Source of the DNA: Escherichia phage IME267
Length of the DNA: 64,000 bases
Sequence record: NC_070983.1
Direction: 5' to 3' (one strand)
This document shows positions 31,887 to 62,447 of the stretch, piece by piece. Position numbers and translations under genes: made by a program. Under the pieces are notes generated by a model that was given only the letters and a program-made list of their open reading frames with translations, was not told the DNA's origin and ran no database searches. Numbering within the stretch: position 1 is the stretch's first letter; each line of letters starts with the position of its first letter.

Positions 31887-32708
31887 TTATTCCCAAGTTT
31901 TATCTAACCATGACCAATCAAAGAGGTCACCTTCAGCTTGTCCAACGAAGAGCAATCGAGCGTTTTCTAACATCTTATCTTCTGCTTCTTCCTCGAACCT
32001 CTTATAGTATTCCATTCGTATAATATGATAAAGAGTCCACTTATCGAATACCTTCTCAATAAGTTTGATTGCAGCCTTGCTACCAATGCCTTTACGGCGC
32101 ATAACCAAGTTGCCACCCCACATCATTTCAACCTTCTCACCACAACCGGGAATATTATCTGTATTATCCCCAATCAACATTTGGTAGAAGAAATTCTGCC
32201 ATGCTACTTCTTCTGATACATAATGAGGAGGTACTTCTTTCTGTCTTTCTCCACAAGCCCAACGATAATGCCATCCGGGAGTGATTAACAAATCTTTATC
32301 ACGAGTACAGATAATCGTATTCTTATCTCGTCTCTGTCTTTCAGCTAGGGCATCATCTGCCTCTCTCCCAAAGACTTCTATATACTCGTAATTTTCTTTA
32401 ATATAATCACTAACGTTCTGCCAGTGGTGGGGTCTTTCTCCCGGTGGGCGATTAGCTTTGTAGCCTTGCTGTTTAGCAATGTTAAATCGAAAGTTACCAC
32501 CTTCACTGAAGTAAAAGATTGTTTTCTCACAACCTGACCTTGCAATGATTACATCAATTTTGTGTTGAAGTCGTTCAATCAAGAATCCATAATCAACTGG
32601 AACACGACCTGTGTCTAGAAAAGGATGCTCTTGTGTAAGAGCACCGACTTCATATCGCAGAACATCTGCATCCACAATTGCTACTTCAGGATAGATTACA
32701 TCAGACAT
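31887..32708 (-). CDS. 5'-3' exonuclease (flap endonuclease family)
   Basis: AIVDADVLRY, GYKANR, EADD, TRDKDL, IGDNTDNIPG motifs; ATG 32708 just after the kinase stop (track start 32735 is TTG). Confidence 0.75.
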   Translation of the reverse strand: MSDVIYPEVAIVDADVLRYEVGALTQEHPFLDTGRVPVDYGFLIERLQHKIDVIIARSGCEKTIFYFSEGGNFRFNIAKQQGYKANRPPGERPHHWQNVSDYIKENYEYIEVFGREADDALAERQRRDKNTIICTRDKDLLITPGWHYRWACGERQKEVPPHYVSEEVAWQNFFYQMLIGDNTDNIPGCGEKVEMMWGGNLVMRRKGIGSKAAIKLIEKVFDKWTLYHIIRMEYYKRFEEEAEDKMLENARLLFVGQAEGDLFDWSWLDKTWE

Positions 32709-33297
32709 AGAGTTCTCTCCGTGTCCGTACAACAATCCAGTTTAAATAATCTACTGCATCTTCTACAGTAGAATTATTCGCTAGGTAGTATGTATTTCTC
32801 TGACTACCTTCAATGTAGGAACGAGAATCTCCTTTAAAATCACAACCTTCACGAATCACCTGAATTACCTGAACATGGAAATGTTTCTCTAGTTCTTCAA
32901 CTTCGGCTTTGAACCCACCATCAGAGAAGACGATAACATCATTCTGTGATGGGATACGTTGTTGAATACTGCTAACAGCAAGTTTACCCATGCAGGTCTC
33001 ACCAAACATAGGCTTCAGGTAATTCTCGCTAGTTGCAATCATCAAGTCTCGAACTGACTTACCGTCCCATTCAGGACGGCTATGCTCTTTCCACTCACGA
33101 TCGTTGTACAGCTCCATGAACTCATAAAGAGGTAGACCTAATGCAGCAGCAGCCACTCGATACATAGGCTCCTTAAAAGCCTTTACATGAGGCCTAAACT
33201 CGGTGTTACCAAGTGTTTTCTCTAACCAAGAATTAGCGATTGTATCTTTACCACAACCCGGTGGTCCATTCAGAATTACTACTAATGGTTTACTCAT
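32701..33297 (-). CDS. Deoxynucleoside monophosphate kinase-like P-loop kinase
   Basis: P-loop VVILNGPPGCGKDT resembles the T4 dNMP kinase N-terminus. Confidence 0.65.
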   Translation of the reverse strand: MSKPLVVILNGPPGCGKDTIANSWLEKTLGNTEFRPHVKAFKEPMYRVAAAALGLPLYEFMELYNDREWKEHSRPEWDGKSVRDLMIATSENYLKPMFGETCMGKLAVSSIQQRIPSQNDVIVFSDGGFKAEVEELEKHFHVQVIQVIREGCDFKGDSRSYIEGSQRNTYYLANNSTVEDAVDYLNWIVVRTRRELYV

Positions 33298-36680: not shown

Positions 36681-37166
36681 TTAGATTGAAGAGACATGCT
36701 CTTGCTCCTTCTCTTGTCTACACTTGGCAGCCTCTTCTAAAGTGTCAAAGGTTCCTAAGTATAAGGTCTTCCCTTGAATAAATATATTTGCAATGTATCG
36801 GCCTTTGCTTAAGTAGACACCCTTAACTCCAGACCTGTTATTTGAGTTGAGTCCTTTGTTCCAAGAGTTTACTTCATTGGTCACAAGACGAAGGTTAGAA
36901 AGTCTATCATCCAGTGGGTTTCGGTTGATGTGATCAATCTGAGTTTCCGGAAAAGTTCCGTGCTTTAAACACCAGATAACTTGATATCTTCTAAAAGTAA
37001 AACCTTGACAGCAGAGTTTCCATCTTCCGAGGGAGTCGATACACCCTGCTTCATCTCCTGCCCTGATTTTAGTCCCTCTTCGAACTTTCCAGTATACTTG
37101 ACCTGTTTCAAAATTGGCTTCAAAGAAGTCATGTATGATTTTAGATTTTACATCCTTCGCAATCAT
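36681..37166 (-). CDS. HNH endonuclease with AP2-type DNA-binding domain
   Basis: IDHINRNPLDDRLSNLRLVTN plus SGVKGVY...LGTFDTLEEAA; ATG 37166 with GGAGGT upstream (track start 37211). Confidence 0.75.
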   Translation of the reverse strand: MIAKDVKSKIIHDFFEANFETGQVYWKVRRGTKIRAGDEAGCIDSLGRWKLCCQGFTFRRYQVIWCLKHGTFPETQIDHINRNPLDDRLSNLRLVTNEVNSWNKGLNSNNRSGVKGVYLSKGRYIANIFIQGKTLYLGTFDTLEEAAKCRQEKEQEHVSSI

Positions 37167-37347
37167 CAAGACCTCCAAGTAAAGACAAGGACAGTAAGCG
37201 AGACTGTTCATCCGATACTAACGTATCAACCTCTTCTTTCAGAGCCATAAGCTCAACAAAAGTTAACAGTTCATGTCGGTCAGCAATCACTTGGTATTTG
37301 TAGTCATTGATATGTGGTGCGCTTTGTACAATGTAAATATTAGACAT
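37141..37347 (-). CDS. Small hypothetical protein
   Basis: ATG with AGGGAG RBS; 68 aa. Confidence 0.4.
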   Translation of the reverse strand: MSNIYIVQSAPHINDYKYQVIADRHELLTFVELMALKEEVDTLVSDEQSRLLSLSLLGGLDDCEGCKI

Positions 37348-44306: not shown

Positions 44307-44478
44307 TTAGATAACCTTGTGCTTATAGATGTTAGGGTTGTAGTAATGCAACCAGTTTATGTATTGCTTCTGTTCGAGGTAGTGCCTGCAATCATGACAA
44401 AAAGCATGACCCAAACCTGTTTCCTCGTTCAGCTTGAAATTGATAAGAAGCTTCTGCTTTCGACAGAAGCTACATGCT

Positions 44479-45129
44479 TTAGTGGGCTTCACGTAATGCA
44501 TCCCAAGAGATTGGATATATTTTACGAAGCTCTTCATCAATGGTTGATGCGAACACTCGTACTTCGTACTGAGCATGGTCTGACAGTCGCTGACGACACA
44601 ACTCTGACCAACCATATAGAGAACCGGTCCATACCCACTCAGTGATCATACCCTGAGGTAATACGAATCGAGCTTGTTCTGGAGCAATAAACTTAATCAA
44701 CTCATCATATGACTCAAGAGCTGTTTCATATGCCCGATTAATCAGAACTAGTGCAGAGTTTTGCGCTCCTGTGGTGAGGAGATTCCCTGCACCTGCATGG
44801 AGGTCCGAAGGTCTTTCAAAAACCTCTTTAGGGATGAAGAGTTCAACTGCTCCATCTTTATACCTCCGGGACATTTCGTTCCACGAGAATCCAACTTGAT
44901 GCTTGCCCAGCTGTCTCGCAATTGCGATTGGCGCTTTGCATCGGAAGCTAATTGTCGGATGGCGGAATGGTGTGACATGCTTTTCTCTGGCAAGGAACTT
45001 GATAAGGCGTTCATCTCGTTCATTTAACTCTCCTTCACGAGTAACCCCAAAGGAAACTCGAGCTGCATTAACAACAGATTTATCAGAACCCATTGCTTCA
45101 ATTAGTGTTGCTTGTAATTGTTCGTTCAT
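44479..45129 (-). CDS. thyX: ThyX-like flavin-dependent thymidylate synthase homolog with a variant substrate-binding motif
   Basis: ARVSF...TPFRH...KAPIxxARQ...SxxxxSRRY...SDHAQYE parallels ThyX, but the RHR motif position reads KHQ. Confidence 0.7.
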   Translation of the reverse strand: MNEQLQATLIEAMGSDKSVVNAARVSFGVTREGELNERDERLIKFLAREKHVTPFRHPTISFRCKAPIAIARQLGKHQVGFSWNEMSRRYKDGAVELFIPKEVFERPSDLHAGAGNLLTTGAQNSALVLINRAYETALESYDELIKFIAPEQARFVLPQGMITEWVWTGSLYGWSELCRQRLSDHAQYEVRVFASTIDEELRKIYPISWDALREAH

Positions 45130-45360: not shown

Positions 45361-45636
45361 TTAAATACCTTTCAGAGCTGTATCTAAAAACGCACGGAGG
45401 TTTGATTCAGTTTGCATACCGGACAAGCTGTAGTGAGCACCACTGTTCATGTTAGGAACCACAAAGGATGGGATACTGCGAACACCATATTCAATGGCTC
45501 GCTCTCGACCATCACCTTCAGAGATATTTACTTCTTCAACTTCTACGTTGTAATCAGCTACAACTTTCTTAAACACAGGAGCCATAGCTGCACATGGAGC
45601 ACATGAATTACTATAAAACTTAATTACTTTACTCAT
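45361..45636 (-). CDS. Thioredoxin or glutaredoxin-like protein
   Basis: CAPC active-site motif in a thioredoxin-length protein; ATG 45636 with AAGGAA upstream (track start 45690). Confidence 0.65.
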   Translation of the reverse strand: MSKVIKFYSNSCAPCAAMAPVFKKVVADYNVEVEEVNISEGDGRERAIEYGVRSIPSFVVPNMNSGAHYSLSGMQTESNLRAFLDTALKGI

Positions 45637-45826
45637 TCTATTCCTTGTTAATAAACAGGTTGATATGACGCTGGGTAGCAGGAACAACAATAAAAGATTT
45701 ATACTGACCTTTTGCTAAGTCATGAGCAATCTTCTTTGTCTGACCAAGACCCATCACACAGCCACTAACGATAATGGCATGTGCTTGTAATTCTTCAGGT
45801 AGGTTTAGTTTCACTCTTTGGGTTCC

Positions 45827-46264: not shown

Positions 46265-46831
46265 TTAGTAAGACACATCACCACTGGAGTGGGACATGTT
46301 GCTCTTGACGAAGTAACAGAACTTGCCAAGACCTTCATTAATTTCTTGAAGCATACTCTGGTCCACTGGATAGGTGCACAAGTCTGAATCAAACTCATCC
46401 ATCTTCTCAATGATACACATAAGAGTCATGCACACGTCGGAAAGCATACCATCCATGTCGAGATCAGCGTTACCTTCTCGGAACCAAGCACGACCTAAAT
46501 AATTACTAGCAGTAGCATCCACTTTAACACAATGAAAGCGCATACGCTCTGCTATTCGGTCGCCTGCCTCACGAGCATAATCTTCTAGTTCATCGAACAT
46601 ACCATGAACACCTTGGAAACCGGCTCCAGAGACGTTCCAGTGGTAGTTCTTTGCTTTGATGTGTAGAAGTTCAAGGTTAGCCTGCACACCGCAAAGAATG
46701 TGCTCTAGGCTGTTACTGCTAATCAGTTTATTCATTCCCTCAAGACGAGAGATAGAAGAGTCAGCAGTAGAGAATGGGTTGCTAGAACCCACTCGTGTTA
46801 GTTCTGGTAAGTCGAAGACATTATTATGCAT
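46265..46831 (-). CDS. Dps or ferritin-like protein
   Basis: LLHIKAKNYHWNVSGAGFQGVHGMFDELEDYAREAGDRIAERM matches the Dps ferroxidase-site helix pattern. Confidence 0.6.
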   Translation of the reverse strand: MHNNVFDLPELTRVGSSNPFSTADSSISRLEGMNKLISSNSLEHILCGVQANLELLHIKAKNYHWNVSGAGFQGVHGMFDELEDYAREAGDRIAERMRFHCVKVDATASNYLGRAWFREGNADLDMDGMLSDVCMTLMCIIEKMDEFDSDLCTYPVDQSMLQEINEGLGKFCYFVKSNMSHSSGDVSY

Positions 46832-47171
46832 TAGGTGCATCCCCTTCTAAGTTAGTTGAATTAGCTACGTTACGAGCAATGTTGTCCATGACCTGCTGGG
46901 TAATAACAATGCAATTCTGTGGGTCTACAGACTTAGAACGCCCCATTTCAGGGTCATAGACTTTGACTCGCTTGGCTGTTGAGCCAGTAACTTGCAACAC
47001 TTTGAGAAGATAACCTTGGTTTCCAATAGACCATGCAACAACATCACGATTCTTGATATAACGACCAAGCATATCACGATGATAGAACTGCTGCATAACT
47101 TTAGCTTTGCTAATCTCTTCAGATGGCGGGGCCACTTTACTCAAATCTAACATAACTCTCTCCTGTTTCAT
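46824..47171 (-). CDS. Hypothetical protein
   Basis: 115 aa ORF. Confidence 0.45.
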   Translation of the reverse strand: MKQERVMLDLSKVAPPSEEISKAKVMQQFYHRDMLGRYIKNRDVVAWSIGNQGYLLKVLQVTGSTAKRVKVYDPEMGRSKSVDPQNCIVITQQVMDNIARNVANSTNLEGDAPNA

Positions 47172-47847: not shown

Positions 47848-48381
47848 TTATACACCCTTAGATGCAACTACACCATTACTGCCGTTGTATCGACCCTTCA
47901 CTGCATAAGAGTCATCACCAGCGTGAGAGTGTTCGAACATAACCATTTGACCAACACGCATCCCAGCACGAACTCGTAAGCTATGATTATGGGTAACGTT
48001 ATGAAATTCAAAGGTTAGTTTACTGCTGTTAAACCCTGCATCAGCCCAACCAGCATGGAGGTGGTTTAAACCACAACGAGCCATTGAGGAGCGAAGTACA
48101 AACAGGCTTGAGATGTTATCTGGAAGGTTAAACTCTTCCATTGAGTGCGCTAAGAAGAATTGCCCCGGAGTGATAACAATACCATCTTCAGGGATTTTTA
48201 CTTCTTTCCACTTGAGGTTTTCTTTAGCATCAATGTCAACAATTCCGTCAGCCTGTTCTTCAACAAGGATAGTATCACCAATACGGATATCCACGCTAGC
48301 AGCGTTAACATATTTATGCTCCGCATCTAAAAAGCCATTATCAATAACGCTGTGTAATTCTTGAGAACCTAAAAGACTCAT
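47848..48381 (-). CDS. dcd: dCTP deaminase
   Basis: LRSSMARCGLNHLHAGWADAGF matches the dCTP deaminase signature; AAGGAG RBS. Confidence 0.75.
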   Translation of the reverse strand: MSLLGSQELHSVIDNGFLDAEHKYVNAASVDIRIGDTILVEEQADGIVDIDAKENLKWKEVKIPEDGIVITPGQFFLAHSMEEFNLPDNISSLFVLRSSMARCGLNHLHAGWADAGFNSSKLTFEFHNVTHNHSLRVRAGMRVGQMVMFEHSHAGDDSYAVKGRYNGSNGVVASKGV

Positions 48382-49814
48382 GAGTTTCTGTCTCCTTGTA
48401 CAGATGATGCCAAATTATTAATCATGTTACGAGCTGTTTCACGAGATAATGTAACACCTGCTAAGTTGTTATGAAGCTCACCAGATAGCTCACGAGCAGC
48501 AGCTCGAAGTTCTGTACCAAGTGTAGTATCGGAGTGAGCCAAACCATTACGACGACTATAAGGTCGAGGAGCTTCGTTAGCGTCATTAGCCAATGATGCA
48601 AAACCAATATGAGCAGCTTCACGAGCCGCTATAGTTGACACTCGATCTTCCGTAGGGGTTGGCAAATCACCAACTTCTACACGTTCTATATCACCAGCAC
48701 GTAGACCCTGAACGACTGAGCTTACTGTTTCCCATGAACGACGAGAACGCTGTAAATCACCCATTGACGGAGAAGGAATAGGACGAGCAGTTCCTCCTTG
48801 GACATGCCATGTACGAGTATCCATTCCAGAAGAGCGTGCACTACCAAAACTGCCAGTGAAAGTGTCACGAGGTGCCATTGTAGGAGGAACTGCGAATCTT
48901 TCCTGTTGCCAAGAATCGCGTCTGTTAGTTCCCGGAGTCCAAGGCTGCGTGATTGCTTCAGCACCTATAGTGGTTAATCCGCTAGACCATTCTGTCTGTA
49001 GGTTAACTTCCTCGTCCAGATAACTACGACCCCTTTCCTGAGGAATGTTTAATATAGTTTCCATCATCTTCAGGGTATAATGACGACGCTGATTCTGATA
49101 TAAATTTACACCAGCCATAGGTCCAACTAAATCACTAATCAGGTGAACTTCTGGCTCACCGAAAGCTCCCATTGCAAGGTGCATATATTCGATAGAACTG
49201 CTATAAACTGCAACAGTTGCTTCAGGCCACTTTTTGTGAACATACTTCATTTCACGACTAGATACCACAGGAATGTCACGAGTGTATGACATTGCAAACA
49301 AACCTTCGTTTGACACATACATGTCATCAAGAGACATGAACCCCTGACAGATCATAGGAAAGCGACGGCTTAAAGTATCCATATCCAAAGGTAGATTAAT
49401 CATCATCTGGATTTTAACTTGATCAATCTCAATTTCCAGAATCTCTTGGAAAGTGAAAAGTGATTCAGTATAGGTTGTTCCACTGATAGGCTGAACTAGT
49501 CGAGATGTGACTTGAAGTCCTTTACTCTCTGTCCAAGACAAGAAGTTGTCAAGGAACAGTGCAGCATTACTTACGTTAGCAGGGCTGTTTTCCTGACGAG
49601 TGTTCCAACGAAACCCTCCTTGAACTAGGAAGATATCAACATCATTCGGAGTTCTATTTTGAAAGAACGTATCACGGATAGCACCACCTGCAATAACAGG
49701 GTAGATACCATCAGGAACTACGTTATCTCTGATCAGGTTACGAATCAGGTCAAGCCCTACACTGAGGGCTTCTCCTTCTTGAAGGTTTAATTCAGACAAT
49801 GGAATCTTAATCAT
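48378..49814 (-). CDS. Nucleotidyltransferase with CCA-adding/poly(A) polymerase-type head domain and low-complexity Ser/Arg/Thr-rich C-terminal half
   Basis: AGGAIRDTFFQNRTPNDVDIF fits the GGxxRD...DxD Pol-beta superfamily motif; ATG 49814 (track TTG 49829). Confidence 0.55.
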   Translation of the reverse strand: MIKIPLSELNLQEGEALSVGLDLIRNLIRDNVVPDGIYPVIAGGAIRDTFFQNRTPNDVDIFLVQGGFRWNTRQENSPANVSNAALFLDNFLSWTESKGLQVTSRLVQPISGTTYTESLFTFQEILEIEIDQVKIQMMINLPLDMDTLSRRFPMICQGFMSLDDMYVSNEGLFAMSYTRDIPVVSSREMKYVHKKWPEATVAVYSSSIEYMHLAMGAFGEPEVHLISDLVGPMAGVNLYQNQRRHYTLKMMETILNIPQERGRSYLDEEVNLQTEWSSGLTTIGAEAITQPWTPGTNRRDSWQQERFAVPPTMAPRDTFTGSFGSARSSGMDTRTWHVQGGTARPIPSPSMGDLQRSRRSWETVSSVVQGLRAGDIERVEVGDLPTPTEDRVSTIAAREAAHIGFASLANDANEAPRPYSRRNGLAHSDTTLGTELRAAARELSGELHNNLAGVTLSRETARNMINNLASSVQGDRNS

Positions 49815-49816
49815 TT

Positions 49817-50365
49817 CTACATTTTCCAATTTAGAGATGGGGGATTCTTATAATCAAATCCAGCCATTTGACAAAGACACATGTAAACTTTAACTGTCAA
49901 GTTAACGTCTTGCTCACAATAGGTGAACATGTCTTCAGTGAATGCGTCCCATGCCTCCTCCTGTTCTCCATAATCTCCTTTCAGCTCCCCAAGAAACTCG
50001 CCCCATTGTTTGAGGCCGTGACCACGAGGGCCATGTCTAGGGTCGCCTTTGGGGTATTCTGGACTATCACCAATACGGTCAGGCTTGAGATATCTACTCA
50101 GGCACAAAGTATCGAAGACGTTAAAGCGAAAAGGTATCACATGAGAATAAAACTTAAACAAAGCAGGAAGGTCAAAATCAATAATATTGTGACCTATTAC
50201 TACATCAGCTTCTTTCAGTTTGTGTAGTGCTTCTTCAATTTGGTGAGGGCGATACCCCCACCGCTCTCCAGATAATACATCAAATATCCAGATACACCAG
50301 ACATTCTGAATACCATCATAGAGATTATCCCCCTCGATATCAAACGCATACAGTTTCTTTACCAC
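49817..50365 (-). CDS. Stand-alone DnaQ-like 3'-5' exonuclease
   Basis: Exo I FDIEGD and Exo [11 protein letters not shown] motifs; GTG start with GGGGAGG upstream, overlapping the primase stop. Confidence 0.7.
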
Positions 50366-52184: not shown

Positions 52185-52391
52185 TTAGTAAAACGATCGT
52201 ATTTCTTCCCACACATCATCTTGCAAGTTTCTAAAACCCTGCAAGGTTTGCTTTGTTCTGTGAATAAATTCTTCAGAGTGCTTATCAGGTGTGAGCATAC
52301 TGACAAACTTTTCATAGCGATTAATCTTCCACCGCATCTTCAAGTAGTCAGATTCCAGCTTTCTTAACTTCTGCCTGTCAGTTACTGTCAT
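52185..52391 (-). CDS. Small hypothetical protein (start uncertain)
   Basis: Internal ATG 52391 minimises overlap with the upstream gene; track start 52487. Confidence 0.3.
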   Translation of the reverse strand: MTVTDRQKLRKLESDYLKMRWKINRYEKFVSMLTPDKHSEEFIHRTKQTLQGFRNLQDDVWEEIRSFY

Positions 52392-52809
52392 CCTTCTCAC
52401 CTGCCAGATATGCTGTCCAGTCACCAGATTCAACCAGAACATCTTGTTCTTCGTCGATGTGATAAATCCACGCTTCCACAGTTTCACCGCTGTCTAATAA
52501 TACTGGAATCAGTGTACGCTTGTAAAAGGTGTATGGGTTATCATTACCACGATGACCTTCCAGACCGTCATATGGACCTTCCAGACCAGCTTGGGTTGTT
52601 TCAAAGACTTCTACACGAACAGGCTTACCATTGCTGTCATGCTCCAAAGATACACTTGGGAAGTATGCTGTGCAATACTGATACAGGTTACAGTTGTTTA
52701 CTGTCCACCCTTCACCAATAGACACACCACCTGCACGAGCATTGATAGCGTGGTTGTGTTGACCTTTACGAAGAGAACCATACGTTGCAACTAATACTTT
52801 ATCAGACAT
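52378..52809 (-). CDS. Gamma-glutamyl cyclotransferase-like (AIG2/GGCT fold) protein
   Basis: N-terminal VATYGSLRKGQHNH matches the YGS/TLxxG signature of the family. Confidence 0.6.
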   Translation of the reverse strand: MSDKVLVATYGSLRKGQHNHAINARAGGVSIGEGWTVNNCNLYQYCTAYFPSVSLEHDSNGKPVRVEVFETTQAGLEGPYDGLEGHRGNDNPYTFYKRTLIPVLLDSGETVEAWIYHIDEEQDVLVESGDWTAYLAGEKDDSN

Positions 52810-53942: not shown

Positions 53943-55178
53943 TTACAGAGTTACTGCTACTTCGCTACCTTCAACATTGACAGACTCTAACTTGCGAGGG
54001 TTATGAATCTGGACTGGATTGACCGGAACGTTCCAACCACTGCGGTAGAAGTTACGACCATCACAGAACAGGATGACATTGGCAGACATTGCATTCGGTT
54101 GCAGGTTGTTGTGGACATGACGGATATTTGCAATCCAGTAGCCACGAGACAAAGTGTAGCCAGTAGGTGCATTACGAATAGTTTGAGTATTCATCTGACC
54201 TTCCAGTTGCATTTCTTCAGGAACCACATCAACTGAATCAATCGGCTGTGCTACTTGTCCTTCCAGTGCAAAGTTTTCATCATCAGCACTTTCAATATCA
54301 TCCACCAACTCACCGTCTCCATCTTCAATCGGAGTCTGGTAAACCACTTTATACTGAGGAGTATAGAGAGGGTTCTGAGCTTTAACAAACTCAAGAATGT
54401 TATGACGGTAGGTATCCAGAGTTGTACCAGTCAGGCCCGGTGCTGTATTAACTTCCAGTACCCACGCTTCTTGACCTTTGGTGATAATATCAACTGCACC
54501 GAAATCCAGACCTATTGATTCAACAGCTTTCACTGCATTGATCAGAGAGGCGTCATTCGGAGCATCTGTGAAGGAGCTTGAGTAAACCCAGCCAGTGTGG
54601 TGATTACGAATATCTTCACGATAGTTAGGGTCTTCGCGATAACCATTGCGACGAATCTTCTTCTGAACATAGGTGATTACACCTTTGAACACATGGACAC
54701 GCCACTCACGACGTGGGCCTTGAATGCCTTTAGTGTACAGTTCAGCTCGACCAAGACCATCACCCGGTTCTACAACAACAATGCCCGAACCAGAGTGACC
54801 AGTCAGCTCATGGCGCTCATACACAATATTACCAGTGTTTGACCACTCTTGAGCAGTCTCTTGAACATCTGTGTATTCCACAGTTTTAACACCTGCTTGG
54901 TCCATCACGCTGAAAGCACGACGTTTGTTCGCTGCCATATGTAAGGCTGCGGTACGGTTAAGGACGGTTGCAGAACCAAAGAATGATTCAGGATAGCGAC
55001 GGTTCCCGTAGTTAACAACCACATCACCTTCACGAGAACGCCAGCGGCTATTCTCTGAAAGAAGACCCATCACGTTAGCATTGATTCGTTCATCACGGAT
55101 AGTATCACTGATAGCAGATACTAGAGCGTTAACAGAATCAGACGGGCCATACGGAAGAACACGGATACGAGTAGTCAT
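53943..55178 (-). CDS. ATP-grasp ligase (RimK-like) with C-terminal extension
   Basis: GAVDIITKGQEAWVLEVNTAPGLTG matches the ATP-grasp C-terminal motif (D...E.N..PG). Confidence 0.65.
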   Translation of the reverse strand: MTTRIRVLPYGPSDSVNALVSAISDTIRDERINANVMGLLSENSRWRSREGDVVVNYGNRRYPESFFGSATVLNRTAALHMAANKRRAFSVMDQAGVKTVEYTDVQETAQEWSNTGNIVYERHELTGHSGSGIVVVEPGDGLGRAELYTKGIQGPRREWRVHVFKGVITYVQKKIRRNGYREDPNYREDIRNHHTGWVYSSSFTDAPNDASLINAVKAVESIGLDFGAVDIITKGQEAWVLEVNTAPGLTGTTLDTYRHNILEFVKAQNPLYTPQYKVVYQTPIEDGDGELVDDIESADDENFALEGQVAQPIDSVDVVPEEMQLEGQMNTQTIRNAPTGYTLSRGYWIANIRHVHNNLQPNAMSANVILFCDGRNFYRSGWNVPVNPVQIHNPRKLESVNVEGSEVAVTL

Positions 55179-55180
55179 TT

Positions 55181-55402
55181 TTAGATACCTTTTAGTTTAA
55201 GAATTTCGTTACGACAGGATTGAATTTTAGCTTCGATTGCCCAATACTCAGCGAACATTTCGTCTTCTTGGGCATCGCTTGGAGAGTCGATTAAGTTAAA
55301 AGCAAACGGATACAGCTTTCGCTGCTCCGTTACCAGTTGTTGAAGTCGGAGTTGTTGATACTCCAGCATTGTCAGGTGAGGCTTAGCTCCCTTGCTTGAC
55401 AT
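55181..55402 (-). CDS. Small hypothetical protein
   Basis: Track start 55411 is TTG; ATG at 55402. Confidence 0.4.
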   Translation of the reverse strand: MSSKGAKPHLTMLEYQQLRLQQLVTEQRKLYPFAFNLIDSPSDAQEDEMFAEYWAIEAKIQSCRNEILKLKGI

Positions 55403-55616
55403 GAGGCTCAACTTTAATCCCCTTCATTTTAACATAGTCAGCCAACACGTTATTGATAACGGTTGGAAAAGGGATTTCTACTGGAGAGTCAACCAGCTTC
55501 CCAATACCTTCTTGCATCCACTTCTGGATTGCTCGGAGGTTATCACATCCTGTGCTTGTCATCGGAATACGGCGGGTAGTTACCACGTTATCCAACATCA
55601 GTTTACGAACTTCCAT
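55383..55616 (-). CDS. Small hypothetical protein
   Basis: 77 aa ORF. Confidence 0.35.
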   Translation of the reverse strand: MEVRKLMLDNVVTTRRIPMTSTGCDNLRAIQKWMQEGIGKLVDSPVEIPFPTVINNVLADYVKMKGIKVEPHVKQGS

Positions 55617-55627
55617 AACTATACCTC

Positions 55628-57661
55628 TTAGTGTTTACCTTTACAGTAATCTGAATTACAGATCACCCTGTTTTCTTTGTTCAGTGAGCAAGTTTCTGCA
55701 TCACGCCACGGAATTTGTTTATAACAGACTGCACAAAACCCAATTGAAGTCCAGAGGGCTTTTGTAAACTCAGCTGTTCGTTGTCCATCGTAACTGACAA
55801 CTGTTTTTCGGAGAGAGGTTGACTTTTCTGGAAATGTCTCCGCTTTCTCAGCGGGTACCTCCTTTGGGGCATTCTTTGGACCATAAACAGAGATGGCATA
55901 AGTATCACCACCACGTTTTTCCAAATACGAATTAGGAACATCTGCAAGTGTGATGTCCCCTGAACGTTTTGCTGAGCTGACCATTACAATCATACGGCTA
56001 AGCATACGTTCATCAACACGAACAGCTACTTCAGGACGACGTGGGTTGGTTGTGTCTACTGCTTTAGTCCAAATATAACCTTCAGATAGAGTAACATTCT
56101 TTACTTTATCTTTGATTTCTTTGGAGCAGATATAACAAACGTCTTCACCACGAAGTTTACTCATTTCGTTGTCAAACTCGAAATCAGTCTTGACTTCACC
56201 ACAGATAGCACATACACCCAAAGGCACATCTTCTTCCTCTTCAGAGGTTTTAGATAACGCTTCGAAGCATTCTGGATGCCAGTATGCCTGATAAGCAAAC
56301 ACAGCCTTACGAGCATCTTTCCAGTCAATGTGCTTATCACAACCACCACAGTCACCATGAGAGTGAGATTCCCAGAACTTACGAGTGACTTCTACACCAT
56401 TCTTAGTGATGAAGGAGTCCTCTGCATCAAAAGGGATATCATCATCAAAATCAGCAGTAGTGCTTTGAGGCTCCTTATCTGTAGCATCAACAAACAGCCC
56501 TGAAGTTAGTACGAGGCGAATCATACTGTCCACTTCGGAGATACAAGCAATCGTCCCGCGATATACTACCTTTGGGTTTTCAAGAGCCTTAAGATATTCA
56601 TCTTTGGCTACGTTGTGAACATCCCCTTCGACATACTCTTGAGCTTTATCATCGTAGATGTAACCAACCATCTTACCACGATCTGTGTTGTTATAAGCAT
56701 GGAACTCGTGAGGAATAATATCCACACGACCATCACGACGATAAGGAAGACCACGATCGGCAGCCAGTTTGTTCTGGTCTTCAATCGCTTTACGACGACG
56801 AATGTCTCCGCTTGTCACGCCGGGCTTGTCGTCTTTGTTTCCGTAAATGTCGCTTGTGCTGCTGCTTGATTTGTTTGTCTGTTGGTTCTGATAAAGAGAG
56901 GAGTTCGAGTAATAGCCGCCCCAGCGACTCGTTACCGTAAAAACCGGAAGCGTGTGCTCCACCTCTTGAACCAGAGTCATACGACTGTTAGACACATCAA
57001 AGATATACTCAGTTCCCACTTTACATTCGAAGTGGTCATTGATACGGTTCTTATGGGACTTAGAACGCTCTAAAATCCACATAAGCATAGCTTCTTCAGA
57101 AGCTCCAAACCAATCCAAACCACAGCGGGCTAGGTGGAAAGGACGCTCATCATTACGGATAATGTGAAGCGTGTTGTCTTTAGCATCATGCCAAATCAAA
57201 GTGAATGCACCATCCAGTTTTTGGATAGTCTCTGCTGCTCCAATGGTGTTAATTGAGTGGCAGATGTTTTCACTATCAACTTCGAAACGCTTACTGTCAG
57301 GAAGGAGATCTTGATCTAACAGGGTTCCATTATGAACCAGAGTAATATCCCCGTGAGTAAATGGGTGAGCATTTCGAGCATTGACAGCCCCACGAGTGGC
57401 ATGTCGGCTGTGACCAACAATCCACGAAGGAGGAACTACGTAGTTCGTAAGCCCTTTGGTAATATTTGTATATTCTGTCTGGAGCATAAAAGCATAAGAA
57501 GGAAGAGCTTCTTTATAAGAGAAGACTTGCTTTTCACCTTTACGCTGACCAAACACACCAGTTGAGTGCTGTCCACGGAAAACACCAGCATACAGAAGTT
57601 GGTTGAAAATGTCCAAATCTGCTGAGGTCATGTTGCCGCCAGCTAATACGATACCACAAAT
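55628..57661 (-). CDS. Class II (Ntn-type, PurF-like) glutamine amidotransferase domain protein with Cys-rich C-terminal region; predicted AUU start
   Basis: In-frame upstream of the track ATG (57631): TAG-AAA-ATT-TGT... encodes CGIVLAGGN, then RGQHSTGV, GHSRHATRGAVNARNAHPF, LVHNGTL as in PurF. Confidence 0.65.
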   Translation of the reverse strand: MCGIVLAGGNMTSADLDIFNQLLYAGVFRGQHSTGVFGQRKGEKQVFSYKEALPSYAFMLQTEYTNITKGLTNYVVPPSWIVGHSRHATRGAVNARNAHPFTHGDITLVHNGTLLDQDLLPDSKRFEVDSENICHSINTIGAAETIQKLDGAFTLIWHDAKDNTLHIIRNDERPFHLARCGLDWFGASEEAMLMWILERSKSHKNRINDHFECKVGTEYIFDVSNSRMTLVQEVEHTLPVFTVTSRWGGYYSNSSLYQNQQTNKSSSSTSDIYGNKDDKPGVTSGDIRRRKAIEDQNKLAADRGLPYRRDGRVDIIPHEFHAYNNTDRGKMVGYIYDDKAQEYVEGDVHNVAKDEYLKALENPKVVYRGTIACISEVDSMIRLVLTSGLFVDATDKEPQSTTADFDDDIPFDAEDSFITKNGVEVTRKFWESHSHGDCGGCDKHIDWKDARKAVFAYQAYWHPECFEALSKTSEEEEDVPLGVCAICGEVKTDFEFDNEMSKLRGEDVCYICSKEIKDKVKNVTLSEGYIWTKAVDTTNPRRPEVAVRVDERMLSRMIVMVSSAKRSGDITLADVPNSYLEKRGGDTYAISVYGPKNAPKEVPAEKAETFPEKSTSLRKTVVSYDGQRTAEFTKALWTSIGFCAVCYKQIPWRDAETCSLNKENRVICNSDYCKGKH

Positions 57662-57738
57662 TTTCTAATCCACCTGAAGGGTAAACCCTTTCATCTAATT
57701 AACCTTTAAATGCGCCCTGTATAAGAGCGCCCGTTGTG

Positions 57739-58839
57739 TTACAGCAGTCGTTCTAATTGCATTTCCAGATGGTCTGGAATATAACCAGTGACGTTATCAT
57801 CACTGCTACCTGATTCACGCATCAATGCAAACATGTGACGAATTTCACGAACCGTTGCGATTCGAGTGCTTTCAATCTGAGGGGTGTAGTAGGTCATGAT
57901 CTCTTCGTAGACACTGTTGGCATTACCGCGCACATATCCCAAGAAACCATAGAAGTCATTCATATCACGTAAGTTGATAAGGACTTCACCATCAGGGCCA
58001 GTCTGTTGCACACGAACACGACCAACCAAAGTCACAGATTGCTCACGACAGAAGAGAATATCACGAGCAAGACGATACCCTTCAGTGAGATCACTGTCTC
58101 TTGGAGTATAGTCTAGGGGTAGATGTTGAATCATAGGAGCGAAGCGCAGCTCATTCAACTTCTCAACATAAGCTTCATTGTCTAAATCTGCATATTCAAC
58201 AGCCAGTTTCTTGAGAACCAAGAAGCGGTTGACCAGATTCAGAAGTTGGCTCTTTTTCCACTTCGGCTCTGAGATACGGAACTCAACAGAACCAAATTGA
58301 GATAGAGGCAAAAGATTAAGGGAGGTATATTTATCCCAGCTATTAACAAGAGAGTGGAAGAAAGCTTCCCCGTCTCGGTTGAACGCTGACGAAGCATTCA
58401 TAACTTGTGCTTGAACGACAGCAAAAGCTGGACAGAAGTTGCTACGATAGCGATGGTATCCAGAACATTTGAACATCATCTTTTCATAGAACGTCCATCC
58501 AAGAATAACTTTCTTAAGGATATTACTATCAGCGTCACGCATATCCATATGAACGTGAGTGGAGCAGCGCCAAGTTCCCTCGGCTCCAGAATCCTGTACT
58601 GCTTCACTCAGATTGTTAATAGCACGAAGTAATTCTTCACCGTTGTAAGGTCGTGCACACACTAATTCACAACCATCACGAAGAGAGCCATCTTCAGTAC
58701 AAACCCACATATCAGCGTCAATATCAGTTGTACCTTCGACTTCTAACTCAATACCAACACCACACTGAAAAGCAATACTTGGATGCGGTTCAGATAAGCG
58801 AGGGTTACGGTATCCAAAAACTTGTGCTACGGTTGTCAT
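57739..58839 (-). CDS. Glutamine synthetase-fold carboxylate-amine ligase (amidoligase / GCS2-like)
   Basis: N-terminal QCGVGIELEVEG resembles the TLGIELEMQVV first-strand motif of YbdK-type ligases. Confidence 0.5.
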   Translation of the reverse strand: MTTVAQVFGYRNPRLSEPHPSIAFQCGVGIELEVEGTTDIDADMWVCTEDGSLRDGCELVCARPYNGEELLRAINNLSEAVQDSGAEGTWRCSTHVHMDMRDADSNILKKVILGWTFYEKMMFKCSGYHRYRSNFCPAFAVVQAQVMNASSAFNRDGEAFFHSLVNSWDKYTSLNLLPLSQFGSVEFRISEPKWKKSQLLNLVNRFLVLKKLAVEYADLDNEAYVEKLNELRFAPMIQHLPLDYTPRDSDLTEGYRLARDILFCREQSVTLVGRVRVQQTGPDGEVLINLRDMNDFYGFLGYVRGNANSVYEEIMTYYTPQIESTRIATVREIRHMFALMRESGSSDDNVTGYIPDHLEMQLERLL

Positions 58840-59462
58840 AATGATTCCACCAACTCTACATTATATGATGACAGGTCTGAAGAAATATGCTTGAACTTCT
58901 CCAGAAGGTTTAAAGATTGACGACCATTGTCGCCATAACCAGCTTCAAGAAGCACGTTTCCAACGTAAGCTCCTTTGTAATAAACTTTTCCATCGACAGG
59001 GTTGATATAGATGAAACGAGTAACCAACCCTTCAAACTCTGGATTAAACAGGTTGTACACCAAATCACCCGGAATCGAACGTCCGAGAGAAGGTGGAGTA
59101 CCACGAAGTTTATTCCCCATCAATCCTTTAGCTCGCTGACGAACAGGGTTGATATGGGTCCAGCTCACCATGTTATTACCATGCTGAAGGTATCCTACAT
59201 CTGGAGACTCCAGAATGAGGCTGTGATCAAACACTGGGATATTACTAACAATCTGACGTTCAAACTGACCTTCGGAGTTTTTAGTCCAGCGTTCCGCCTC
59301 AAACACTAAAGACATTTCAGCGTCGTGTGAGTAGTCGTCAATATCAAAGTTACCTTGCTGACGAACATCAAGCACATATAGAGGGAGGTTTTTACCATCA
59401 GGTGATCGCTGAGCAATCCATGTTCCACAATAATAGTGTTGAAAATCTCTTAACAAGCTCAC
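58836..59462 (-). CDS. Hypothetical protein in ligase cluster
   Basis: 208 aa; ATGA overlap with the amidoligase gene. Confidence 0.45.
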   Translation of the reverse strand: MSLLRDFQHYYCGTWIAQRSPDGKNLPLYVLDVRQQGNFDIDDYSHDAEMSLVFEAERWTKNSEGQFERQIVSNIPVFDHSLILESPDVGYLQHGNNMVSWTHINPVRQRAKGLMGNKLRGTPPSLGRSIPGDLVYNLFNPEFEGLVTRFIYINPVDGKVYYKGAYVGNVLLEAGYGDNGRQSLNLLEKFKHISSDLSSYNVELVESL

Positions 59463-59471
59463 AATATCACC

Positions 59472-60278
59472 TTATACAATCTGGAGTTTAGAGGAGAATT
59501 TATCCGCTTCTTTAACATCGTTACTGTTGATGATGTTGTGAAGCTTTTCAATTGGAAGGCGAGAGTGAAGTGACATCAATACTTCCATATCACAGCCTTG
59601 AACAACCTTATCAACTTGCTCATAAACAAACTTGCGGGTTGACTTCTCGCCAATCCAGAAGTTAGAAAGAGAACGATATTCAATGCCGTAATCCTTGTAA
59701 CGAATAGCAGAAGCCTTTCCGTATAACTCTTTACGACGAGTGTCTTTATCCATGATCACAGCTGGCAAGGACAGGAAGTAATCACACAACACACCCAACA
59801 TCATTTGAGTCTGACGACTAATTTCCAGCGTACCAGCGACGCCAAGGTGAACGTGACCGCCAGCAGTACGCAGACCTTTGTCTGTCGCTACTGGTGAAGG
59901 GTTCTTTTGTCCAGTGAAGGCATTGAAATCAGGAGTACAACCAAATACAAAGGCTGACGGATGGAAAGATTCCAGCTCTTCTGAAGTGAACACATGAGAG
60001 CTAATCCCAAGTGCTGCCTCCATGCCACGTTCATTGAGAACTTTGTTAGTCAGATCAATACCACGCTGAATGTTATCATTAAACGCTTCAAACCCTTTCT
60101 GTGGGTTAATATCAAACTCGGCCAGAACGTTGTCTTCTTGAAGACGAACATCAGGAGCCAGATCAATTTTATTATCTTTAGAACAGCCCAGCTTACCAGC
60201 CACAGAGGTGATAATACCGGAAGCAGTACGAACAAACATTTCAGGGTCAGAGCCAATAAGGAAAGCGCGCTTAGTCAT
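59472..60278 (-). CDS. Hypothetical protein, possible second GS-fold ligase
   Basis: ATG 60278 with GGAG upstream (track GTG 60323); N-terminal FLIGSDPEMFV weakly resembles the ligase first-strand motif. Confidence 0.3.
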   Translation of the reverse strand: MTKRAFLIGSDPEMFVRTASGIITSVAGKLGCSKDNKIDLAPDVRLQEDNVLAEFDINPQKGFEAFNDNIQRGIDLTNKVLNERGMEAALGISSHVFTSEELESFHPSAFVFGCTPDFNAFTGQKNPSPVATDKGLRTAGGHVHLGVAGTLEISRQTQMMLGVLCDYFLSLPAVIMDKDTRRKELYGKASAIRYKDYGIEYRSLSNFWIGEKSTRKFVYEQVDKVVQGCDMEVLMSLHSRLPIEKLHNIINSNDVKEADKFSSKLQIV

Positions 60279-61221
60279 TGTAATACTCCACGAGTTCATC
60301 AAAAAGGGAAACAACACGAGCACCAGCTTCTTCTGGTGTCATTGAGGAAGGTACTGCTTGCATCAGACGTTCGATAAAACTTTGAACAGTAATTCTGTCC
60401 ATACGCTGATCTAATACTTCTCGCTTGTGGCCTGCACAAGTTGACCAGAGACGTAACCACTCACTCATACTCTCATAATGGTCAGGGTCTTGGTCACGAC
60501 GACGTGCCATACGACGGAGAACTCCATCATTATGGTTTCGTACATAACCATCTCGGTTGTCATCAACACCGAATACATTCTGAACCCATACGTTTTCAGA
60601 AAATTCATCAGTGGTGCAAATTAATGGCAGAAATGCAATTGCACTCATGTCGCCATCAAAATAAGTCGCTGCTGACTCATCGGTTGAGTCTACGTCATTA
60701 CTATAACACCAGCGACCAAAGAAGTTACGACTTAAACCAGCTAAGCGTAGAGCTAAACCGATTCGTTGTCGCTTAAGCAACTCTTCCTTGTCTTGTACGC
60801 CTTCCTGAAGGAACTCCATTCCATTAAAATCACCATCCAAATAGCTACGGATGGTCATTAGTCCAGTAAACACCTTATCTGCTGGATGGTTTCGAAGGTT
60901 CACGGCAATAGAGTTCACCGAAGTGACAGAGAACATATCTTTATAGCAAGACATTGAGTTAAAAATGTCTGTTGCTTCAACTAAAGCTCTTTCGATATCT
61001 TTAGCTGGTACGCCATAAAAATTGTGAGGCCAGAAGTTAATAACTTCAATTTCTGAAGTTCTGTCACGAAGGCTTGTTCGGTTACGACTTTCACCGTTAA
61101 TGTCTGTAACAGAATACATGTGCATACAGTTAAAAGTACCAAAGCAAGCTCTTCCTTTGAACACTGACTCACCGAAATCCTCTGCCGGTGTTACCGGAGC
61201 AATCGATGCGGAGATTGACAT
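60271..61221 (-). CDS. Hypothetical protein in ligase cluster
   Basis: 316 aa ORF. Confidence 0.45.
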   Translation of the reverse strand: MSISASIAPVTPAEDFGESVFKGRACFGTFNCMHMYSVTDINGESRNRTSLRDRTSEIEVINFWPHNFYGVPAKDIERALVEATDIFNSMSCYKDMFSVTSVNSIAVNLRNHPADKVFTGLMTIRSYLDGDFNGMEFLQEGVQDKEELLKRQRIGLALRLAGLSRNFFGRWCYSNDVDSTDESAATYFDGDMSAIAFLPLICTTDEFSENVWVQNVFGVDDNRDGYVRNHNDGVLRRMARRRDQDPDHYESMSEWLRLWSTCAGHKREVLDQRMDRITVQSFIERLMQAVPSSMTPEEAGARVVSLFDELVEYYND

Positions 61222-61229
61222 ATTCGCCT

Positions 61230-62447
61230 CTATTTATTAAAGAATAATTTTTCCATAATGGTTTCCCACTCTTCTGAGGGGAGGGTTGAGAACCCGTTTC
61301 CGTGAAGCCTGTTTGTCATGCAACTAATAATATTGTACATGTTGTAGCTTCGGGTGGATTCTGTTCCATTGTTCCAGTTATAACCGAAAACAATTTTATC
61401 GAAGGAGGTTTTATCCGTAGTTACTTCTCGGATAAACTCAACCAAGAGCGATTTCTCTGTGATGACCGCACGTTCACCATCTGGCAGATTGCAATACTGA
61501 GGAAGAAGGATTGGTAAGAACATCGAATTGTTCACTCGACAATCACGAACACCTTCACTGCGATAGATTAGGCTTGAGAAGTCTTCATCACGCAGGTGTC
61601 CTTCACCTTCAGTGTATTCACACTGTCGCCACTTGGTCTGGCGAGGCTCAATCATTGTACTACCAACGCCTACTGTATACAGAGACGCTTGGAAAATACA
61701 TGAATCGTAATCATTCCCTGTTAAAGCAACTTGCTCGTTGCCGAACACATCCACTGAAGAGTTAATCAGTCGGCTGAATGCAAGAGAGGCTAGTGGAGAC
61801 CAACCTTTCTTATACATCTTGTTCAGCATTTCATACACAGCAGATTTTTCATCATCTGTATAGAATGTACGATTCAGCATCAGATAGAACAGAGCGCGAT
61901 CAGCAGGACAACCATCAGTACAAACACCCATGAATCCTACTTCATGCCATACCAGACATGAGTCAGAATCTTTATCCATGAATGCTTCAAAGGCTTCCAT
62001 TACAGCCCTGTCAGTAACATCAGGACGGTTGTTTTCTTCTGCCCATGTTTCTACATGAGAAGGAGGACGAGGGTCTCCATTCTCCACCCCTTCGCGGAAA
62101 TATTGAGTGGTAATAGGCTTTTTATCACCATAACGTTTTACACCATAAGCGGGAAGGTGTGTACCAGAGTTCCAGATGTACTTAATTTCGGACATAGGCA
62201 TCATGTTTTCGAGAACGTTCTCTTCAGCAGTGCCTTGACGAACCATCATATTTTCACTCCACACCTTAATGCGGATATTCCAGCCGTAGTTGCTGTCATA
62301 CGTGTTATAATAATCAGGATCACCATCTTCATCTTCATCATAATCACCACCCTGATAGTAACCTGCTTTCAGGAAACCATAACAAGGAGGCCAGACGGTT
62401 ACAACATCATCTGATTCTTTCCAGCTTTGAAGTGTTACAGGGAACAT
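61230..62447 (-). CDS. Hypothetical protein in ligase cluster
   Basis: 405 aa ORF with AGAGGT RBS; acidic Tyr/Asp-rich N-terminal segment. Confidence 0.45.
   Translation of the reverse strand: MFPVTLQSWKESDDVVTVWPPCYGFLKAGYYQGGDYDEDEDGDPDYYNTYDSNYGWNIRIKVWSENMMVRQGTAEENVLENMMPMSEIKYIWNSGTHLPAYGVKRYGDKKPITTQYFREGVENGDPRPPSHVETWAEENNRPDVTDRAVMEAFEAFMDKDSDSCLVWHEVGFMGVCTDGCPADRALFYLMLNRTFYTDDEKSAVYEMLNKMYKKGWSPLASLAFSRLINSSVDVFGNEQVALTGNDYDSCIFQASLYTVGVGSTMIEPRQTKWRQCEYTEGEGHLRDEDFSSLIYRSEGVRDCRVNNSMFLPILLPQYCNLPDGERAVITEKSLLVEFIREVTTDKTSFDKIVFGYNWNNGTESTRSYNMYNIISCMTNRLHGNGFSTLPSEEWETIMEKLFFNK

Follow-up and report, generated by a model that had tools for sequence, protein, structure and literature searches.

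The window analysed here is a stretch of 64,000 nucleotides from Escherichia phage IME267 (NC_070983.1), a podophage of the phiEco32/ECBP2 group (Gordonclarkvirinae), and its gene of interest is thyX, a minus-strand open reading frame (ORF) at 44479..45129 that runs from ATG to stop and encodes a flavin-dependent thymidylate synthase of 216 amino acids. The start codon lies 12 nt past the stop of the upstream gene and is preceded by the Shine-Dalgarno-like sequence AAGGAAG. Pfam PF02511 (Thy1) matches the product at 146.5 bits against a cutoff of 24.8 (E=1e-42, profile positions 1-190 of 191), the NCBIfam equivalog TIGR02170 'thyX' at 123.7 bits (cutoff 87.9) and phrog_85 'thymidylate synthase' at 209 bits, while its sequence matches in the PDB include Thermus thermophilus Thy1 (5.7e-29) and Thermotoga maritima ThyX (3.9e-26). 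An AlphaFold2 model, built from 38 homologues as a single chain, reached a mean pLDDT of 95 and a predicted template-modelling (TM) score of 0.88, and Foldseek superposed it on T. maritima ThyX in complex with flavin adenine dinucleotide (FAD) and deoxyuridine monophosphate (dUMP) with TM-scores of 0.80-0.84. These results confirm a full-length member of the ThyX family with the ThyX fold, in agreement with the original prediction, which had been made from the sequence alone. The locus is 98.9% identical to that of vB_EcoP_HC-25922, and GenBank records already name the gene 'thymidylate synthase' or 'ThyX'.

The departure from the family norm lies in the stretch usually written as the ThyX motif, RHRx7S. 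HMMER alignments to the T. maritima and T. thermophilus enzymes place K76-H77-Q78 (44896..44904, minus strand) opposite R78-H79-R80 of T. maritima, a site that contacts the phosphate and ribityl moieties of FAD and the flavin N1; the prediction of KHQ at the RHR position was therefore correct. (T. maritima numbering, prefixed Tm below, agrees in our reference with the PDB alignment and with the mutant names H53A, S88A, R90A, Y91F, E144R and R174K in the PDB.) A one-residue insertion before the conserved serine further turns RHRx7S into KHQx8S, and the protein lacks the literal signature. The remaining family strings (AARVSF, TPFRH, KAPIAIARQ, SWNEMSRRY and SDHAQYE) are present, as is the entire dUMP-binding and catalytic set, namely R72, Q73, E85, S87, R89, Y90, R154 and R181 along with the folate/NADPH histidine H51 (Tm R74, Q75, E86, S88, R90, Y91, R147, R174 and His53, respectively). 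Within it, S87-R88-R89-Y90 (44860..44871, minus strand) unites the catalytic-region serine, the dUMP-binding arginine and the tyrosine lid (Tm S88, R90 and Y91) with a subfamily-specific arginine, R88, in place of Tm G89. Compared with the canonical enzymes (T. maritima TM0449, to which it is ~33% identical, T. thermophilus Thy1, PBCV-1 A674R and Mycobacterium tuberculosis ThyX), the IME267 protein has the same fold and length and shares the dUMP, uracil and flavin-ring contacts H53, Q75, E86, S88, R90, Y91, E144, R147, R174 and Q180; it differs in KHQx8S, in the loss of Tm E58 and R165, and in the changes of N163 to S and G89 to R.

These differences characterize a large assemblage of relatives. 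RHR was absent from all 270 of those retrieved, which comprise a close set, the best 120 homologues from a search of 5.8 billion proteins (down to 51% identity), and a diverse set, the best 150 of 6,921 ThyX-like clusters found when HMMER was run exhaustively against 1.84 billion 50%-identity representatives (39-59% identity, 142-207 bits); in its place they show the pattern (K/R)-(H/S)-x...S-R-R-Y. The close homologues are of the KHQ type in 120 of 120 cases (one as KSQ), within the near-invariant block ARQLGKHQxGFSWNExSRRYKD. A column census over a 126-row alignment (125 diverse subfamily members and IME267 ThyX) gave K in 104 and R in 21 rows at the first motif position, H in 111 and S in 14 at the second, and Q in 69, K in 18 and T in 15, among others, at the third, followed downstream by x-G-x3-(N/S)-E-x-S-R-R-Y. 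Tm H53, P56, F57, Q75, E86, S88, R90, Y91, E144, R147, R174 and Q180 are near-invariant (122-126 of 126), with H59 (121/126) and E182 (120/126) only slightly less conserved and R74 at 104/126; H79 and a serine or threonine at Tm55 are likewise retained. Changed together across the subfamily are R78 to K, R80 to Q, E58 to R/A, N163 to S, R165 to Y/A/L, N169 to R/E and G89 to R, the last in 122 of the 126 rows.

The same linkage of positions is seen when phage enzymes alone are compared. Sixteen phage ThyX proteins were sampled across the identity range, and the 15 that could be read (all but that of Rheinheimera phage barba) split cleanly into two architectures. The first, found in Thermus phage G20c, a mycobacteriophage and Gordonia, cyanophage, Staphylococcus and Acidovorax representatives, combines RHR with a glutamate at Tm58, S-(G/A/Q)-R-Y and mostly an arginine at Tm165. 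The second, found in IME267, Aeromonas phage, N4-like Klebsiella and Vibrio phages, the T7-like Lauvirus and CRP-403, Alcaligenes phage and Streptomyces phage Warpy, combines K-(H/Y)-x with the lack of both Glu58 and Arg165 and with S-R-R-Y (S-M-R-Y in one). In these 15 proteins the motif changes co-vary completely with the other positions. The Warpy enzyme deviates more than that of IME267: it is of a KYT type, has 8 extra residues inserted in the motif and carries a glutamate at the otherwise invariant Tm His53. Inteins typically sit at critical sites, and in four metagenomic representatives (P0121, P0132, P0224 and P0265) one is inserted exactly inside the KHQ...SWNE motif, where the protein is most conserved (junction ...HNF.GNG.VVHN followed by S/C-x-NE). 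On this pattern of conservation, the variant motif is under purifying selection, and KHQ is the signature of a large ThyX subfamily and not an anomaly of IME267.

The subfamily extends to cellular genomes. When one genome for each GTDB species was scanned with patterns built on 21 closer sequences, 50 loci with relatives were recovered, all of them KHQ or KSx where read; the patterns pre-select KHQ types, and the count thus speaks to presence and not to frequency. The members from Spirochaetia, Chloroflexota, Nitrospinota, Poribacteria and Dependentiae have the motif architecture of the IME267 protein (ARQL.KHQ.G..WNE.SRRY), equal length and 41-46% identity to it. Neighbours of selected loci were gene-called and scanned against Pfam. 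On the complete 1.79-Mb chromosome of a Spirochaetia member (OZ251568.1, locus L003), thyX is flanked on one side by citrate synthase, aldo-keto reductase and short-chain dehydrogenase/reductase genes and on the other by the pyrimidine-biosynthetic dihydroorotate dehydrogenase (pyrD) and a fusion of orotidine-monophosphate decarboxylase and phosphoribosyltransferase (pyrF/E); locus L004 has the same gene order as judged by ORF size only. Three metagenome-assembled genomes (MAGs) of Chloroflexota/Dehalococcoidia have in common a neighbourhood in which thyX lies between the E2 component of a 2-oxoacid dehydrogenase and a major facilitator superfamily transporter. Elsewhere thyX is surrounded by AcrB, IspH/LytB and MlaA (Nitrospinota), an enolase-superfamily protein and a class-V aminotransferase (Poribacteria), MscS, RecD2 and an M48 peptidase (Dependentiae), or ClpX and an EndoIII-like protein (a Rickettsiales MAG). 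Three alphaproteobacterial loci, two in isolates (L019 and L027) and one in a MAG (L042), show a prophage-type replication module around thyX, with DNA polymerase A and ribonucleotide reductase in L019 and L042 and a helicase and a GcrA-like regulator in L027. No cellular organism is known to replace thymine wholesale, and for this reason the most plausible reading of the bacterial KHQ genes, which sit as native genes in housekeeping chromosomal contexts, is that they encode genuine thymidylate synthases. Since the deviation is common to the whole subfamily, native bacterial thyX genes included, it is the RHR motif that is too narrow and not the IME267 protein that falls outside the family. 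The original prediction had taken KHQ as a hint of an altered substrate or product and had itself named a common K-H-Q variant as an outcome that would tell against this; the alignments show just such a variant, a KHQ-type motif being present in every relative retrieved and in native bacterial genes, and the altered substrate or product inferred from it is not supported.

One element does set the clade of IME267 apart within the subfamily. Downstream of SRRY lies a flexible loop, which reads WR.R....KQGS in 120 of 125 diverse members and 46 of 47 cellular ones and takes a similar form in the canonical T. thermophilus enzyme; in IME267 it is replaced by VFERPSDLHAGA (44788..44823, minus strand). 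Among 119 close relatives, 88, including IME267, have this clade-specific loop in the form 'IF.RP..LH.G', and the other 31 as 'RP.KLMTQ.A'. Likewise, the enterobacterial-phage clade has 'SRRYKD' where bacterial and most metagenomic members have 'SRRYVD'. The loop change by itself proves nothing about function, because KQGS is missing from T. maritima ThyX too, and that enzyme is a proven synthase.

Published work places the RHR residues and R165 at the cofactor. The RHR residues, described as highly conserved, hydrogen-bond the adenosine-monophosphate phosphate and the ribityl and phosphate of the flavin mononucleotide (FMN) half of FAD; the first arginine also hydrogen-bonds the isoalloxazine and helps hold dUMP, and a serine and an arginine contributed by the adjacent subunit (the arginine being Mtb R190 = Hp R165, mapped by spacing to Tm R165) bind FAD as well (PMC6514825). 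Tm R78 faces N1/C2=O of the reduced flavin (PMC11940539). In PolB, the polyoxin UMP/dUMP C5-methylase of Streptomyces cacaoi (PDB 4P5A), the nucleotide phosphate is held by R82, S96', R98' and R166', whereas R86, the equivalent of the first RHR arginine, touches the ribose O3' only (PMC5003785). Under a +8 mapping, these phosphate binders correspond to Tm R74, S88, R90 and R147, all four of which are conserved in IME267 ThyX. The earlier view of the RHR arginines as contacts of the nucleotide phosphate is thus largely wrong, RHR mainly binding FAD (PMC6514825, PMC11940539) and the phosphate binders lying elsewhere (PMC5003785) and being conserved. Taken together, the replacements suggest that the cofactor pocket has been rewired in the subfamily, with the flavin-ring and uracil chemistry left untouched. 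A lysine is able to fill the role of an arginine at flavin N1/C2=O, and the change of the first motif arginine to lysine would retain the positive charge there, near dUMP. The third motif arginine is lost, as are Tm E58 and Tm R165, the latter acting in trans from the other subunit; E58, N163 and N169 are presumed FAD contacts in the T. maritima enzyme. The near-invariant R88, new beside the dUMP-binding arginine, may compensate for the lost arginines, and the pyrimidine, phosphate and catalytic residues remain as they were.

PolB also provides the only proven case of a non-standard substrate range that our literature searches turned up in the ThyX family; it has in common with the IME267 protein the ThyX fold and flavin chemistry, but carries the canonical-type S-A-R-Y and draws its specificity from tyrosines in Loop 1 and Loop 2 (PMC5003785). 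It is also the more distant relative, with 65 bits to the IME267 sequence against 104 for T. thermophilus ThyX, and 139 against 204 to the subfamily profile. A PolB-like UMP methylase was considered and rejected, as 4p5a ranks below both T. thermophilus and T. maritima ThyX and the loop VFERPSDLHAGAGNLL contains no tyrosines, whereas the PolB loops have Tyr124 and Tyr126.

Within the window, further genes of nucleotide metabolism accompany thyX. Two had been named by the original prediction and stand: a deoxycytidine triphosphate (dCTP) deaminase, yielding deoxyuridine triphosphate (dUTP), at 47848..48381 (minus strand; PF22769, 119.7 bits; phrog_1663, 199.6 bits), and a probable deoxynucleoside monophosphate kinase, acting on deoxythymidine monophosphate (dTMP) to give dTDP, at 32701..33297 (minus strand; phrog_139 only, at 141.7 bits, the Pfam match being sub-threshold), which is annotated as 'hypothetical' in ECBP2. 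A thioredoxin-fold gene two genes upstream of thyX (45361..45690, minus strand; PF00085, 46.5 bits) flanks it together with a ferritin/Dps-like gene (46265..46840, minus strand). Thioredoxin also occurs near thyX in Rheinheimera phage barba and in a 90-kb Salmonella phage, where the thioredoxin-thyX-ferritin association comes with an ATP-cone protein and the module comprises primase/helicase, polymerase-exonuclease, dCTP deaminase, PhoH, thioredoxin, ThyX, a ferritin-like protein and DNA polymerase A; in a 53-kb coliphage, ThyX adjoins primase-helicase and polymerase A. The IME267 window showed no ribonucleotide reductase. Such a module is the expected setting for a supply line running from dCTP through dUTP, dUMP and dTMP to dTDP.

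In light of this conservation and context, we consider it likely that the product of the IME267 gene is a catalytically active thymidylate synthase of the flavin-dependent kind, engaged in ordinary dTMP synthesis (dUMP + methylenetetrahydrofolate + NADPH -> dTMP), which had also been the default reading of the original prediction. The dCTP deaminase would provide dUTP, the host Dut would convert it to dUMP, ThyX would methylate this to dTMP, and the monophosphate kinase would carry it onward. We infer that the three enzymes would rebalance the pools by raising the supply of deoxythymidine triphosphate for a 42% GC genome (42.2% over the window) in a host of higher GC (~51%). Several observations weigh against this reading. 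No PDB entry scored as a member of the KHx subfamily, leaving it without a solved structure, and our literature search found no biochemistry on KHQ-type ThyX. Given the replaced loop, the bacterial enzymes appear to be imperfect proxies for the phage clade. Finally, the Gordonclarkvirinae are reported to show striking resistance to restriction-modification (RM) in vivo, with no known modification pathway (Humolli et al., PMC11990801), and one short report found that HindIII and BfaI did not cut the DNA of the relative EcM-vB1 (PMC11699686).

Among the alternatives, the best placed, which we nevertheless regard as unlikely, is that the same reaction proceeds with another cofactor economy: looser FAD binding, use of FMN, reduction by another agent, or NAD(P)H bound in another manner. 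It would account for the fact that the RHR residues and R165, assigned to the FAD phosphates and ribityl, are the ones altered, and it finds a foothold in M. tuberculosis ThyX, where NADP+ takes the FAD site (PMC6514825). The changes at the presumed FAD contacts E58, N163 and N169, the alteration of the positively charged WR.R..KQGS loop in the phage clade and the recurrence of a thioredoxin-fold gene near thyX in unrelated phages point the same way. However, the new invariant R88 and the retained lysine and histidine could plausibly restore phosphate binding, H79 and the serine or threonine at Tm55 are kept, and the adjacency of thioredoxin is open to other explanations.

Somewhat less probable still is a neo-functionalised ThyX in the phage clade (KHQ/SRRYKD with the LH.G loop), making a non-methyl C5 product such as 5-hydroxymethyl-dUMP or feeding some other DNA modification. 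Such an enzyme would still bind dUMP and pass on the folate methylene by way of the flavin. The ThyX reaction proceeds via an exocyclic methylene (PMC8989533); hydration of this intermediate would give such a product, and the monophosphate kinase and the polymerase would carry it into DNA, which would explain both the in vivo restriction resistance and the uncut EcM-vB1 DNA, the genome of which holds 34 HindIII, 187 BfaI and 13 EcoRI sites. The clade-specific loss of the KQGS loop near the active site is consistent with this, and there is precedent in an unrelated fold: small active-site changes in phage pyrimidine hydroxymethylases and hydroxylases of the ThyA superfamily, such as the 5-hydroxy-dCMP synthase RB69 gp48, yield modified DNA precursors (PMC13326640, PMC8989533), a single substitution marking the 5-hydroxy-dCMP synthases (PMC13326640). 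Yet the ThyA-superfamily enzymes are unrelated to ThyX in fold and mechanism, no comparable diagnostic substitution is seen in IME267 ThyX, and our literature searches found no phage ThyX-family counterpart of them. T4 gp42 and SPO1 gp29 are further phage examples from the ThyA superfamily. Against a changed product also speak the presence of KHQ/SRRY in bacterial housekeeping enzymes, the absence of the KQGS loop from T. maritima ThyX too, and the conservation of all residues with a known role at dUMP or at the flavin ring, among them the tyrosine 'lid' that keeps solvent away from C5/N5 (PMC6514825). Of the genes of 5-hydroxymethyldeoxyuridine (5-hmdU)-based thymidine hypermodification, as defined in PMC8989533 (ThyA-type dUMP hydroxymethylase, 5-hmdU DNA kinase, aGPT-Pplase), none turned up when 32 products encoded in the window were compared with Pfam and/or PHROGs, nor did other known genes of thymidine hypermodification; the ECBP2 and EcM-vB1 annotations list none of the three either, and a literature search returned nothing direct on ThyX-based base modification in phages or on nucleoside analysis of Kuravirus-like DNA.

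The composition of the window bears on the same question. CCWGG is absent where ~85 copies are expected, as is CTGCAG against ~18, while GATC (123 observed, 251 expected) and GAATTC (8 observed, 22 expected) are depleted. Such avoidance implies that restriction reaches the DNA at these sites and argues against its wholesale modification. The HindIII, EcoRV, EcoKI and EcoP1 sites occur as often as expected or more often, and EcM-vB1 has the same site pattern as IME267; the idea that the resistance is mere site depletion was therefore rejected as more than a partial account. Restriction profiling has moreover been used to map the termini of phiEco32 (PMC9965538), and the report on EcM-vB1 is brief and assigned the phage to the 'Myoviridae' by transmission electron microscopy (PMC11699686), at odds with its genome, which groups with the phiEco32-type podophages. 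The BASEL authors (Humolli et al.), who did not mention ThyX, speculated that the dCTP deaminase and the adjacent nucleotidyltransferase produce deoxyuridine (dU)-containing DNA (PMC11990801). A conserved and apparently competent ThyX is hard to square with this idea and argues against it, a point that in turn favours some other modification. For non-canonical DNA in this phage group the published resistance leaves room, but KHQ is no evidence for it.

A degenerate, inactive remnant in a non-catalytic role scarcely merits consideration, for although two of the three signature-motif residues are lost, the variant motif is invariant over hundreds of sequences down to ~40% identity and the full-length protein keeps all catalytic residues and a confident fold; we rejected a pseudogene on this conservation.

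Other genes of the region touch on restriction or had been linked to the pathway. The 'nucleotidyltransferase' of 483 amino acids (48378..49829, minus strand; phrog_12715, 553 bits), which lies with the dCTP deaminase on one side and the polymerase-exonuclease subunit on the other, has no Pfam match and no PDB relative and is missing at the equivalent position of the 90-kb Salmonella phage module; it is this gene that the BASEL authors flagged as a possible DNA-modification gene (PMC11990801). Directly downstream of thyX lies a small Zn-ribbon ORF with CxxC...CxxC (44307..44615, minus strand), weakly similar to Lar-like restriction alleviation proteins (phrog_5558, E=8e-4). As listed, it overlaps the 3' end of thyX by 137 nt; its true start is probably an internal methionine at ~44501, because the PHROG match spans residues 46-102 only. 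In EcM-vB1 the gene right after thyX is annotated as 'anti-restriction nuclease', its homology to the Zn-ribbon ORF being assumed from position only. The ligase cluster (53943..62447, minus strand), which the original prediction had drawn into a pyrimidine pathway, comprises by Pfam GATase, Amidoligase_2 and phiEco32-type COOH.NH2 ligase (PF14395) genes along with several genes without a Pfam match; these are catalogued amidoligase families defined on the phiEco32 phage group itself, and have no shown tie to nucleotides. Nearby, 52378..52809 encodes a gamma-glutamyl cyclotransferase. The replication module is interspersed with HNH homing endonucleases (e.g., 36681..37211, minus strand), and in ECBP2 one of them splits the DNA polymerase gene (ECBP2_0048-0050).

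Finally, a conserved and apparently competent ThyX in the Gordonclarkvirinae argues against the published suggestion that dU replaces dT in their DNA, and their restriction resistance still needs another explanation. Should the phage clade nevertheless make a non-methyl product or feed some other modification, its enzyme would be without precedent in the ThyX family as part of a pathway that modifies DNA bases. More generally, 150 or more clusters at the 50% identity level, from several bacterial phyla and many phages, carry a K-H-Q-type motif instead of RHR. This subfamily would represent a mode of cofactor binding as yet structurally uncharacterised in an enzyme that is an antibacterial drug target, and it implies that for annotation purposes the textbook motif is drawn too narrowly.

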